Shown here one piece after another: positions 2,857-18,762 of a DNA stretch of 64,000 bases; the stretch's first letter is position 1, and every line of letters begins with the position of its first letter. The stretch lies in the IMG/VR virus record IMGVR_UViG_3300014205_000172, positions 173,172 through 237,171 of that record; one strand, written 5' to 3'. Origin of the DNA: a virus. Lineage: Duplodnaviria; Caudoviricetes. The notes below the pieces were generated by a model. That model saw only the letters and a list, made by a program, of their open reading frames with translations. It made no database searches and was not told where the DNA came from. Position numbers and translations under genes: made by a program.

Positions 2857-3225
2857 ATGACTGAAGTTCTGATCAACGGCGTGCGGTTCGTACCGGCGCC
2901 GATTGTTTGCGAGAATCCAGAGCTGCTCGATTTCGAATGGGACTTCCGCGATGTAGGCAAGGCGCGCATCCGCGATTTCCTTTGTCAGCTTCTGCTGACT
3001 CTTTGGGAAAAGGGCGAAAGGTTCGACGGCAAATGGCCATGGGGTAATAGCGGCTGGCAGTGGGATTTCTACGAAGCCCTTGTTGCCGCTAAAGCTGTCG
3101 AGGGCGACATTGACGTCAACGCATTTGGCTGGGAAAAGGGCGATGGTAATCGCGAGAAGGCTTTCGATATCACGATGGGCCTGATCACCGCCATGTGTTC
3201 AACTCCTGCTGACGGTAAGTCCTAG
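2857..3225 (+). CDS. hypothetical protein, paralog of 3234..3560
   Basis: Shares ELLD.EW.F...IR..L..LL..LW.....FD.K.P.G.S.W....Y.AL..AKA..G. Confidence 0.8.
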   Translation: MTEVLINGVRFVPAPIVCENPELLDFEWDFRDVGKARIRDFLCQLLLTLWEKGERFDGKWPWGNSGWQWDFYEALVAAKAVEGDIDVNAFGWEKGDGNREKAFDITMGLITAMCSTPADGKS

Positions 3226-3233
3226 GGGTCGCT

Positions 3234-3560
3234 ATGGCAACTGAGCTAACTCACGACGAACTGCTTGATCTTGAATGGCAGTTCGAAAAAGGCGGTCCTA
3301 AATCGTCCATCCGCAATTACCTTCAAAGCTTGTTGATTCATCTTTGGCAAGCTAAGTCAAACTTTGACAGCAAACGCCCATTTGGTAAATCCTCTTGGGA
3401 GTTTCAACTGTACGCTGCACTGATTGGCGCGAAGGCGATCGCTGGGACTGTTGATAGCGACGGGCTTGTTGAAACGATATTTACTGAGGACTTAGCTAAG
3501 GCTGATGAGTTGATCGAACAGCTTATCATCACCATGTGTAAATCCTCTGGTAACCAATAG
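3234..3560 (+). CDS. hypothetical protein, paralog of 2857..3225
   Basis: Same motif string as the upstream gene. Confidence 0.8.
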   Translation: MATELTHDELLDLEWQFEKGGPKSSIRNYLQSLLIHLWQAKSNFDSKRPFGKSSWEFQLYAALIGAKAIAGTVDSDGLVETIFTEDLAKADELIEQLIITMCKSSGNQ

Positions 3561-3569
3561 GGGCTACTA

Positions 3570-4022
3570 ATGGGCGGTCGTGATCCAAATAAAAAACCAA
3601 CGTCGAAAGACTTCTTGGGTGATCCAACCCGGATGATGGAAGCTGACTTTCGATGTGGCTACAGGGGTAAGGTCCGACGGGAATACGAGATGTTCCTTGA
3701 TACAGACGGTTCGCGCAGTAAGTTTGTTGCGTATCGGGCTGTCCATGGCGGCATGATCGTGTGTCACACAATTCACCACCTGCGTCACCCAGATACAAAC
3801 ATTCGAATGATCGTGTGGTATTTACGCCGCGCTAAGTCCACGCCTGTACCACTCGTGGTTTGGGCGGGTAATGCGAAGGTCGAATTTCCAGAAGGTTCTC
3901 GCGATCCCGCCATGATCGAGATGACACCTAACCTCATGCAACGTCGCTACATGACAACGGGCGTGTGGCAGAAACCTCGCATCAAGCGCCCCTTCAGTTT
4001 CCCGCAGCCAATCGATCGCTAG
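3570..4022 (+). CDS. hypothetical basic protein
   Basis: 150 aa ORF with SD AGGGG. Confidence 0.7.
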   Translation: MGGRDPNKKPTSKDFLGDPTRMMEADFRCGYRGKVRREYEMFLDTDGSRSKFVAYRAVHGGMIVCHTIHHLRHPDTNIRMIVWYLRRAKSTPVPLVVWAGNAKVEFPEGSRDPAMIEMTPNLMQRRYMTTGVWQKPRIKRPFSFPQPIDR

Positions 4023-5398: not shown

Positions 5399-5440
5399 CA
5401 TATAGCCGGGGCATTGCCCCGGCTATATGCTTTCTTTTTT
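5399..5440 (+). terminator. intrinsic terminator
   Basis: CATATAGCCGGGGC-ATT-GCCCCGGCTATATG followed by CTTTCTTTTTT. Confidence 0.85.
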
Positions 5441-16548: not shown

Positions 16549-17124
16549 ATGACGTTTGTATCATCGCGAAAGATTCCACTGATCTGTCAAACTGTTGGCG
16601 CGCTACCGGTTATCACAATGGAGAACTATCCAAAGTGGTACGGACTTGAGGTCATCCATCCAAATGGCACTGTAGAAGATGTCGATCCAGATCTGTTGGA
16701 TGAGTTGTGTGGCGATAAGCCTTTGATGGGTGACCATAACTACCATCCAGACCTATTGAAAATGGTAGCTAACAGACTTGGCGGTATTGTCGATCAGGTC
16801 TCCCTGTACACAGCCGCTGGCCGCTGGCAAGTGGAAGTTGTTGATGAGTGTAATGAATATTCATACTCGGCCATCCACCGCAATAGTTCCACTTGGGTTG
16901 AAAATACGGTCAGTGAGGAGATTGCGCAACTCACTCTGTTTCGAATGAAGTGGCTTAGTGAAAATATGCCAGATTGCATTCAAAGCGTACGTATTCTTTA
17001 CCGTCCTAATGGTACGCTTGTGCTGAATGACGTTACAGCAACCATTTCGGATCTCGACAAGCTAGGTGTTCCTACGTCTATGTTGCAGATGTATGCCAGT
17101 AACTACTTACTAAAACCCGTATAG
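16549..17124 (+). CDS. hypothetical protein
   Basis: GAGG SD before ATG 16549. Confidence 0.7.
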   Translation: MTFVSSRKIPLICQTVGALPVITMENYPKWYGLEVIHPNGTVEDVDPDLLDELCGDKPLMGDHNYHPDLLKMVANRLGGIVDQVSLYTAAGRWQVEVVDECNEYSYSAIHRNSSTWVENTVSEEIAQLTLFRMKWLSENMPDCIQSVRILYRPNGTLVLNDVTATISDLDKLGVPTSMLQMYASNYLLKPV

Positions 17125-17144
17125 GTATGTAGAGAAACCGTAAT

Positions 17145-17280
17145 GCTCGCGACCGGTTGTAAGTGGAAGCTTAGGGCAGCTGGCCAATTGCGATCACTGA
17201 AGCCGGTGCGCGAGCGCCTTATTCTAGCTTTATCCCAGCACGATACCTGCATTAGACATCAGTAGCAGAGAAAGGCTTTT
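17145..17280 (+). ncRNA. candidate structured ncRNA A
   Basis: Stems GCTCGCG/CGCGAGC, ACCGGTT/AGCCGGT, TAAGT-GGAA-GCTTA and GCCTT..TTCT/AGAG..AAGGC; G-U pairs favour the + strand. Confidence 0.55.
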
Positions 17281-17301
17281 CTCAGATTACTAGGTGGCAA
17301 A

Positions 17302-17727
17302 ATGTTTGATATCGTATCTGTCGCTGACCGGACTATTCGTGAAATCTATTTGGACGAAAGTCTGAAGGATGAGGAACGAGGTGCTTTAGTCATCGTGTTG
17401 GGATCGGGTCATCGATTCGAGATTTATGACGGCCATGGTCAAAGCTGTTGTGAACATCGTTACTTGGAAACAAGCGATGATCTTTCTGCATTAGTTGGGG
17501 AGCAGTTAGTGTCTGTGGTGTGTGAATATCACGACAATGGATCAGAGTGGGGTGACGCTCAAACCGAAGCCGCCTCTATCCATATCCGATCAGATCGCGA
17601 CTCTGTCGTGGTCGGTTGCTACAACTCGAACAACGGCTACTACGGTGGTCTTAGTCCAGTGGTTGATGTAATCGACTCCAATGGTTTTGTGATTGTGAGA
17701 GGGGCTGACTTGCAACAACCCGGTTAA
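17302..17727 (+). CDS. hypothetical phage protein (QSCCE...NGYYGG type)
   Basis: HGQSCCEHRYLE and SNNGYYGG motifs, recalled from a widespread phage DUF. Confidence 0.75.
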   Translation: MFDIVSVADRTIREIYLDESLKDEERGALVIVLGSGHRFEIYDGHGQSCCEHRYLETSDDLSALVGEQLVSVVCEYHDNGSEWGDAQTEAASIHIRSDRDSVVVGCYNSNNGYYGGLSPVVDVIDSNGFVIVRGADLQQPG

Positions 17728-17767
17728 TGCGGACCGGCGCTTCGGCGCCGACTTATTCAAGTGTTAT

Positions 17768-18012
17768 GCCTGCGACCCACTAAGTAATTTCCGCCGTGCC
17801 GAAGCCTCGGGCGGGGGTGAATAGGTGAGTGTCGCGGGCGCCTAATCTGCTGCAGCAGATACTGTACTGGTACCGTATTGTGATTGTCACAGCCCCTCGT
17901 AAGGGTGAATAGGCCATATAGACATCAGGATGATGGAAAAGACCTCGCAGACGGATGGAACATCAGTGCAGTAGCCTTTCCCATACTGGCCTGCTTCGGC
18001 AGGTCTTTATGC
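17768..18012 (+). ncRNA. candidate structured ncRNA B, related to A
   Basis: Begins at the G of TATG; stems GCCTGCGAC/GTCGCGGGC and GCCTA/TAGGC; ends in the UUCG hairpin at 17988-18005. Confidence 0.55.
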
Positions 18013-18063
18013 TGTAAGTATCAACTTAGACATCTGCTTATATATCCACCAAGGGATCTTATC

Positions 18064-18762
18064 ATGAAATTTGGCTCTTATGACTTTAAACAAGTCTGTC
18101 GCAATGAAGTAGAGTCACTGCCAGAAAGTAGCGGGTTGGTACTTATCCGTGATCGGTCCGATCATCGCTTTGACGTACTCTGCGCCAATAGCTTACGGCG
18201 TCGTCTGTATCAGGCAGTTAATGGAGAAGTGGGTTCGCTTATTAAAGCACGTTATCCCATCTCTCCTGAAGATCACGTTGAGTTCTTCTACTGCTCGCTT
18301 GGGTATGTCGCTAACCTGAATGTCCACAAGTACCGGCTGCGTATGCTCCTTAAAGGCAAGCTTGTTACTCAGAACACTCATGGTACTGACGGTCGTGGTT
18401 ACAAGATCAACTTGTTTACCTACCCTGAAACGAGTGAGTACTTCATCTCGATCCAAACCATGGCGTCCAGGGAAGATCCATTGATGCGTCTGTACCGGAT
18501 GCTCAATGGGAAGATTAAACAGACGCACGTAACAGGCAATCCTATTGTAATGAACTTCTCGCGAAAGCGCGGTCCCTTCAATGAGACCAACTCTTTCATT
18601 CATGAACTCCGCAAGGCTGACATCCCAACTCTTAACGAAGCAAAACAAGCTGCACGAGAATTAGCACTAGAACTTGGCACTCAATATTTGCTCACAGCCA
18701 ATGTGGTTGATCGGGCACAGTGGAAACATCCCGGATGGGATAAGGTCGCAAAACATGCTTGA
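18064..18762 (+). CDS. protein with two degenerate GIY-YIG-like domains
   Basis: LPESSGLVLIRD...ANSLRRRL resembles the UvrC N-terminal GIY-YIG domain; the C-half aligns with 894..1571. Confidence 0.55.
   Translation: MKFGSYDFKQVCRNEVESLPESSGLVLIRDRSDHRFDVLCANSLRRRLYQAVNGEVGSLIKARYPISPEDHVEFFYCSLGYVANLNVHKYRLRMLLKGKLVTQNTHGTDGRGYKINLFTYPETSEYFISIQTMASREDPLMRLYRMLNGKIKQTHVTGNPIVMNFSRKRGPFNETNSFIHELRKADIPTLNEAKQAARELALELGTQYLLTANVVDRAQWKHPGWDKVAKHA

Follow-up and report, generated by a model that had tools for sequence, protein, structure and literature searches.

Phage tRNA clusters have long been known to contain small stable RNAs. To our knowledge, the species 1 and species 2 RNAs of phage T4 have gone without an assigned function for fifty years. 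These small non-tRNA RNAs, rnaC and rnaD, lie at the 3' end of the T4 tRNA cluster, beside the GIY-YIG gene segB (PMC3014915, PMC9697503). Their lengths are 139 nt for rnaC, which has a T arm, and 119 nt for rnaD. Other non-tRNAs, pre-4.5S RNA and the precursor of the P1/P7 C4 antisense RNA, are hairpin-shaped, obtain their 5' ends from RNase P and carry a 3' RCC-type tail (PMC4919922, PMC11143913). The E. coli enzyme cleaves hairpin model substrates as well as the natural hairpin substrate pre-4.5S RNA (PMC11143913), and RNase P also cleaves phage regulatory RNAs (PMC4919922, PMC11143913). Bacterial RNase P reads its substrates through base pairing of loop L15 with the 3' RCC and through contacts to U(-1) and A(-2) (PMC4919922); a U at -1 is preferred without being required (PMC11143913). 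The t-elements of plant mitochondria are partial tRNA mimics located between genes, where they recruit tRNA-processing enzymes to cut polycistronic RNA (PMC4919922).

The locus described here belongs to a viral contig of 237 kb with an estimated completeness of 95%; the final 64,000 nucleotides of this contig, which contain the locus, are referred to as the window. The large helicase of this genome shares no more than 41% identity with its counterparts in named phiKZ-like jumbo phages such as Noxifer, FLC9 and Eowyn, which makes the genome that of an uncultivated, distant member of the phiKZ-like group. We infer that the phages of this clade resemble the nucleus-forming relatives of phiKZ. The element is carried by two intergenic stretches, 17125-17301 and 17728-18063, with a small DUF7448 gene between them. 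An earlier note had interpreted them, from the letters alone, as two paralogous structured RNAs, A and B. A blastn search of the locus against named phages returned no match. Relatives were reached through homologs of the 232-aa gene located 3' of B, which yielded about ten contigs: four are 90-94% identical and six encode a homolog of the 232-aa protein that is 54-58% identical. The features of the locus are as follows.

17107-17129, + strand: predicted middle-type operon promoter, with TTAC at 17107-17110, TATG at 17126-17129 and the predicted start at G 17129
17129-17144, + strand: leader of A, 16 nt, ending G-U-A-A-U; conserved in L048, L093 and L094
17145-17215, + strand: hairpin A1 (A type), 71 nt; basal helix formed by 17145-17153 with 17207-17215; fold z -4.6; 58 bits with model R2
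17216-17219, + strand: unpaired G-C-C-U tail of A1; R-C-C-U in 14/14 copies
17228-17301, + strand: 5' UTR of the DUF7448 cassette, with a promoter-like word TTTATCC and the 10-mer at 17253-17262
17302-17727, + strand: small gene, 141 aa, DUF7448 (Pfam PF24240, E 1.4e-13)
17735-17750, + strand: weak UUCG hairpin 3' of the DUF7448 gene, with a poor U tract; read from the sequence, uncalled by the terminator scan
17756-17767, + strand: leader of B, 12 nt, ending G-U-U-A-U; contains the TATG of 17765-17768
17768-17839, + strand: hairpin B1 (B type), 72 nt; basal helix formed by 17768-17776 with 17831-17839; 88 bits with model R1
17840-17843, + strand: unpaired G-C-C-U tail of B1; R-C-C-U in 14/14 copies
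17846-17859, + strand: B2, small palindromic hairpin; one compensated pair among close relatives
17861-17972, + strand: B3, domain with a predicted closing 11-bp helix; holds the second 11-mer (17903) and the 10-mer (17919)
17988-18005, + strand: UUCG terminator closing the operon, from the terminator scan; conserved in all relatives
18006-18013, + strand: TTTATGCT, promoter-like word for the next gene; its TATG at 18008-18011
18064-18762, + strand: 232-aa gene, 3' of the B hairpin in every relative

The shared motifs on which the comparison of A and B had been based are present as listed and are essentially confined to this locus in the genome. A 12-nt 5' motif (ATGC, two free bases and six fixed ones) has three genomic occurrences, including 17143 and 17766; an 11-nt 3' motif occurs only at 17209 and 17833 and a shared 10-mer only at 17253 and 17919. 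The 11-mer reported twice in B is indeed found at 17815 and 17903, and nowhere else in the genome. The order of the motifs is the same in A and B, the first two being spaced 66 and 67 nt apart. Two of the listed features did not survive comparison with the relatives. TAAGT is not conserved there and has 362 occurrences in the genome, and the second stem that was to pair GCCT with AGGC is not supported, since this GCCT forms the R-CC-U tail, which is conserved and unpaired.

A1 is predicted to fold at -40 kcal/mol (z -4.6; 0/200 shuffles as good) and B1 at -37.9 kcal/mol (z -2.8; 2/200 shuffles). The full-length local alignment of A and B is modest, with a z of about 3 over shuffles, and a covariance model built from the B-type hairpins gives the A type no more than 18 bits. 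These two results restrict the proposed paralogy to the basal helix and flanks; it does not extend to the whole length. Within that limit, the shared motifs and structure support the view that A and B are diverged copies of one conserved structured RNA. A coding reading was rejected: the frame from the conserved ATG has 5 codons in B and 40 in A, and its length and frame vary in the relatives.

Homologs of the B-type hairpin are present in the same position in all of the roughly ten relatives (61-89 bits with model R1 in 10 relatives), followed in turn by the UUCG terminator, by a promoter word of TATG type and by the 232-aa gene. The A-type hairpin is restricted to the subclade of the window, namely the window itself, L048, L093 (identical to L100) and L094. 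Altogether 14 copies were compared, 10 distinct B-type and 4 A-type sequences. The conserved unit is a hairpin with its flanks, 61-73 nt in total hairpin length and variable in its body, and not the 136-nt A and 245-nt B first delimited; the 3' two-thirds of B occur only in relatives about 92-94% identical and fold no better than shuffles (z -1.6). The basal helix has 9-10 bp and starts at G(+1). None of the 14 copies departs from A(-2), U(-1), G(+1), C74, C75 and U76, and position 73 is a purine, G or A, throughout.

The helix covaries. Among the B-type hairpins (10 distinct sequences), pairing extends to 96.6% of cells, compared with 86% in shuffles (0/500 as high), and it falls to 35-50% when the 3' partner is slid. 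Six pairs of the B-type helix show double changes, and the A type alone, with 4 sequences, has three compensated pairs. When all 14 A and B copies are considered, 96.8% of the basal-helix cells pair versus 83.5% in shuffles (0/500), and position 4 is occupied by five different pair types. The 5' stem with compensatory changes that the earlier note saw between A and B is thus borne out by covariation in 10 B-type and 4 A-type sequences. Conserved pairing in homologous loci, which the same note had named as a test, is present in the basal helix of all 14 copies. The many G-U pairs indicate that the structure is selected in RNA read from the + strand. The B-type loop of 13-15 nt contains an invariant 8-nt apical word, UGCCGAAG (17797-17804), whose surrounding stems covary. 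The A type has a conserved apex too, different from that of the B type. A whole-genome duplex scan for a trans target of the B1 loop gave no outlier beyond the expectation for GC-rich 33-mers.

The hairpins do not belong to any described class that was searched. Neither A nor B is a tRNA, in agreement with the first impression from the sequence: ARAGORN called no tRNA or tmRNA, and RF00005 gave no match at E<=10 in 16900-18300. ARAGORN and RF00005 do detect the tRNAs of the relatives. A search of Rfam, including C4 antisense RNA, SRP/4.5S RNA and Y RNA, gave no match at gathering score or at E<=10, so that no known class was recovered. The genome encodes no TROVE domain, that of the Y RNA partner Ro60, and likewise no CCA-adding enzyme, RNA ligase or Ro60 was found in it. 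The T-loop word is absent from the 14 hairpins, which are thus not mimics of the tRNA top half of the t-element type. All 14 have a tRNA-type acceptor end, consisting of a helix of at least 7 bp from G1, an unpaired purine 73, and then C-C; position 76 is U in 14/14, not the A of CCA. Likewise present in 14/14 are the sequence contacts of RNase P, namely A(-2), U(-1) and G(+1) on the 5' side and, adjoining the helix, the R-C-C on the 3' side.

In the relatives the same locus is a tRNA operon, a setting that the description of A and B as free-standing ncRNA genes had overlooked. The operon of L091 contains tRNA-Tyr, Gln, Asn and Ser as well as an odd tRNA, and the other relatives have one to three. 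In every relative the B-type hairpin is the last unit of the operon before the conserved UUCG terminator. In L097-L099 it starts 6 nt after the CCA of the preceding tRNA-like unit. The leaders are shared as well: in L091 tRNA-Asn has an 8-nt leader identical to that preceding the B hairpin of L095 and L096, tRNA-Asn leaders all end in A-U, and the 3' end of the odd tRNA is G-CC-U in L048, L094 and L095. The leader of B is identical in L048, L093 and L094, regardless of what lies upstream. The genome of the window itself has no tRNA detectable with ARAGORN (window and whole genome) or with RF00005 at E<=1 (genome). This tRNA-less genome still holds two intact copies of the hairpin, whereas relatives have up to five tRNA genes at the equivalent locus. 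That all tRNAs were discarded and two hairpins kept argues for a hairpin role other than decoding support.

All relatives have, in front of the operon, a TTAC word and then TATG, whose G is 18 nt further on. In phiKZ the middle-promoter motif is centred near -24, with TATG at the start site (PMC4666361). By this resemblance 17107-17129 is predicted to be a phiKZ-middle-type promoter of the operon. A tRNA of 201phi2-1 is likewise under middle-promoter control.

Several unusual units were seen in the operons of the relatives. The odd tRNA (L048 4861-4947; L093 3604-3687; L094 1341-1426; L091 3333-3416; L095 3453-3538) is absent from the window. It scores 39-48 bits, above the Rfam tRNA threshold, and has an elongated, self-paired anticodon arm; ARAGORN finds no proper anticodon in it, reporting a 6-nt loop or a 10-nt "intron". 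Another group of RNAs, each close to 150 nt in length, occurs at the approximate positions 2070-2190 and 2195-2350 in L097, 3690-3822 in L098, 3655-3795 in L099 and 2873-3025 in L091. They have an acceptor-type stem, a canonical T arm, a CCA end and long inserts, and are uncalled by ARAGORN and Rfam; their architecture is reminiscent of T4 rnaC. In L099, at about 2968-3000, the 5' half of a tRNA-Asn is followed by an open reading frame for an HNH-type endonuclease (3048-3653), and the 3' half is missing. This tRNA-Asn appears to have been disrupted by the mobile endonuclease gene.

The operon context bears on how the hairpin RNAs could be made, and favors tRNA-type processing over a free-standing ncRNA gene running from promoter to terminator. 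We hold with moderate confidence that A1 (17145-17219) and B1 (17768-17843) would be stable hairpin RNAs with a tRNA-like acceptor end, freed by the tRNA-processing enzymes of the host. Long irregular hairpins of roughly 25-30 bp with internal loops, placed between genes and present as paralogous copies in one genome, could also be generic processing or stability elements like the RNase III sites of phage T7; they would then not be recognized as tRNA-like and would not function as free RNAs in their own right. The A-U-rich bases after the tail agree with this. Double-strand cleavage nevertheless leaves unexplained the invariant single-stranded flanks, which are the same as those of the neighboring tRNAs, and also the invariant 8-nt apical word amid covarying stems; we regard such elements as a rather improbable explanation.

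The segment between the two hairpins differs even among close relatives. The A-B interval holds the odd tRNA in L048 and L093, the odd tRNA plus the cassette in L094, and the cassette alone in the window. The DUF7448 gene is absent from L048, L093 and L100 and present in L094; it is a movable cassette between the hairpins. Its 5' UTR is missing in L048 and L093 and in L094 is placed after a tRNA-like gene, not after hairpin A. It follows that the copy of the 10-mer assigned to A belongs to the UTR of the cassette and not to the hairpin RNA. In Noxifer a DUF7448 homolog (L047 2786-3426) lies directly 3' of a tRNA-Lys, which ties the DUF7448 gene to tRNA regions in more than one jumbo-phage lineage.

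Exchange of this kind, with the odd tRNA, the DUF7448 gene or both swapped among close relatives and the break points at the hairpin ends, would be expected if the hairpins were remnants of a tRNA operon in decay, or if they worked on the DNA level as direct repeats that only promote cassette exchange (perhaps with the GIY-YIG-like protein described below), and had no function as RNA. The genome has also lost its tRNAs, and B3 is not significantly structured. This reading is very unlikely, because the compensated changes and the G-U pairs reveal that an RNA helix has been under selection across relatives whose neighboring protein is only 54-58% identical, and because G-U pairs are C-A mismatches on the opposite strand.

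Downstream of hairpin B1 conservation is uneven. The B2 hairpin also follows the B hairpin in the distant relative L099. B3 is found only in relatives of 92-94% identity, and its fold is not significant relative to shuffles (z -1.6). B3 and the shared 10-mer are lineage-specific, and the status of B3 is uncertain. Two candidate origins of B3 were rejected: its similarity to the spacer after the tRNA-Asn of L091 is not significant (z 1.0), and it has no tRNA-like score as a decayed tRNA. The UUCG hairpin said to end B lies at 17988-18005 and is terminator-like by scan. In the promoter word that follows, TATG occupies 18008-18011, so the G is at 18011 and not at 18012. Across the genome, 52 promoter-like sites share one pattern, T followed by G, A or T and then by TATGC and a pyrimidine; the word at 18006-18013 is one of these sites, and many of them stand directly after a GC-rich hairpin flanked by an inverted repeat. 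Examples in the window are at 5424, 36145, 44575, 45481 and 61380. These sites look like compact terminator-promoter modules, some of them two-way.

The apical word of B1 is complementary to a stretch of the UUCG terminator, 9 nt in the window and 8-9 nt in relatives, that takes in the loop together with the 5' arm and some of the 3' arm; both partners are conserved. B1 could on this basis be a cis antiterminator that controls read-through into the 232-aa gene. The pairing shows no covariation, and in L097 the terminator loop has changed and the hairpin has not. Such sequences complement any C-UUCG-G hairpin, of which the genome has 27. The downstream gene moreover has its own promoter, and the distance from B1 to the terminator ranges from about 15 to about 145 nt. 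Together these points make antitermination highly improbable.

No Pfam or PHROG family was found for the 232-aa protein. Its first ~95 residues are modeled, weakly, as a GIY-YIG-like fold (pLDDT 71), and Foldseek ranks the N-terminal domain of UvrC and I-TevI highest, again weakly (E 0.06). The signature tyrosines of GIY-YIG proteins are not conserved in it. The protein was considered as a partner of the hairpin RNA and set aside, since the weak fold match gives no clear link.

The invariant bases at the 5' end of the helix invite comparison with a promoter. The late promoter of phiKZ is TATG, and its G is the start site (PMC4666361). Each element might accordingly be a primary transcript of the phage non-virion RNA polymerase, initiated at a TATG promoter with the first G of the stem as the start. 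The hairpin would then protect the 5' end, B would be a 245-nt ncRNA from promoter to terminator, and A would be the 5' UTR of the small gene. Window B and its three closest relatives do have TATG with G at +1, the bases after the G of the 52 genomic sites resemble the 5' strand of the helix, and a good terminator stands at the end of B. The 5' flank is, however, TAATG or CAATG in 10/14 copies and TATG in only 4/14, and phiKZ transcription needed all four TATG positions (PMC4666361). With TATG in just four of the 14 copies, the promoter does not account for the conservation of the flank. The statement that B starts at the G of a late-promoter TATG is thus correct for the window (TATG 17765-17768) and names a feature that is not the conserved one. 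In addition, a better promoter candidate for A lies 16 nt upstream, the hairpin of L097-L099 starts 6 nt past a tRNA-like CCA end, and the invariant R-C-C-U tail is left unaccounted for. We consider initiation at the stem unlikely. The flanks shared with the real tRNAs of the operon, together with the promoter fit in only 4/14, favor release by the tRNA-maturation machinery of the host.

Release of the hairpins by host enzymes would proceed as follows. The operon would be transcribed from the middle-type promoter, starting near 17129, and the hairpin would be freed like the neighboring tRNAs, by a cut of host RNase P before G(+1). That RNase P cleaves A1 and B1 is suggested by the presence of its sequence determinants. 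The 3' side would be trimmed to R-C-C, and completion by the CCA-adding enzyme of the host is possible. This would yield a stable hairpin, the conserved apical loop of which (B type, 17797-17804) would bind a partner. In the tRNA-less phage the same cuts would act as tRNA-like punctuation between the upstream message, the DUF7448 message and the B RNA. Access of host enzymes to the transcript is assumed, despite the inferred phage nucleus.

Some features count against a role for RNase P. The hairpin lacks a T-loop, which normally helps RNase P to position its substrate. An invariant U76 takes the place of the A of CCA. The promoter consensus of the phage has initially transcribed bases similar to the 5' strand of the helix, and window B has a perfect TATG. 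Processing by RNase P and initiation at TATG both predict 5' ends at 17145 and 17768; they differ in the chemistry of these ends and in the role of the tail. A further proposal, for the function of the mature RNA, is that it is a non-decoding mimic of an acceptor end (R-C-C, or R-C-C-A when completed by the host), which the phage would retain past the loss of its last tRNA as a decoy or sponge for host tRNA 3'-end factors, or which a phage protein would recognize as a handle through the invariant apical loop. Defense toxins that modify or extend the CCA end are an example of factors that might be decoyed. We rate this proposal as speculative, with very little chance of being correct.

Within the searches made, all finds of the element come from a single small clade of uncultivated phages. 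Of the 40 and 25 matches that IMG/VR returned to two degenerate patterns, only those on the contigs of two known relatives score with the model. The remaining matches look like chance; the 40 sit in high-GC DNA. A protein-guided scan of metagenome contigs added one further contig, and a search of Noxifer and two other jumbo-phage contigs with model R2 found nothing. The models found no extra copy of the hairpin in the 237-kb genome, except for one match of 16 bits. This weak match to both hairpin models is located outside the window (genome 160723-160780, minus strand). It resembles the apical region of distant B-type hairpins at 18/20 bases and runs antisense to the open frame 160635-161030; a chance match and a target site are both conceivable. 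The "undescribed jumbo-phage ncRNA class" of the earlier note corresponds to a real structured RNA that is absent from Rfam, and the name is too broad for an element of one small clade.

The locus provides a simple new example of a small RNA of a tRNA cluster, with clear covariation. If tRNA-type processing is true, a bare acceptor-type helix with its flanks would suffice to borrow the tRNA-maturation enzymes of the host, which would punctuate phage messages or make a stable small RNA. The defined 8-nt loop offers a handle for a partner search. The family is narrow, with about ten uncultivated contigs, and its present importance is moderate.

By context, the closest known RNAs are species 1 and 2 of T4, and the 232-aa gene, fixed 3' of the B hairpin, recalls segB in the T4 tRNA cluster. 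The phage element differs in being a plain hairpin of 61-73 nt without a T loop, and its fold is unlike those of rnaC and rnaD. Local alignment with rnaC and rnaD showed no significant similarity (z 3.8 for window A, 1.7 for its orthologs and about 0 for B), and a 9-mer shared with rnaD in the leader is not significant. With the late promoter of phiKZ, window B shares TATG, the G of which is the first base of the stem; this TATG is missing in 10/14 copies. By proposed mechanism, the closest systems are the hairpin substrates of RNase P and the tRNA-like punctuation elements. Compared with pre-4.5S RNA and the C4 precursor, the phage hairpins have a tail that reads R-CC-U and not R-CC-A, match no SRP or C4 model at E<=10, and are here predicted to be cleaved. 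The t-elements comprise an acceptor stem and a T arm; the phage element has only the acceptor-type helix and flanks, joined to a long unrelated body with a loop of its own.
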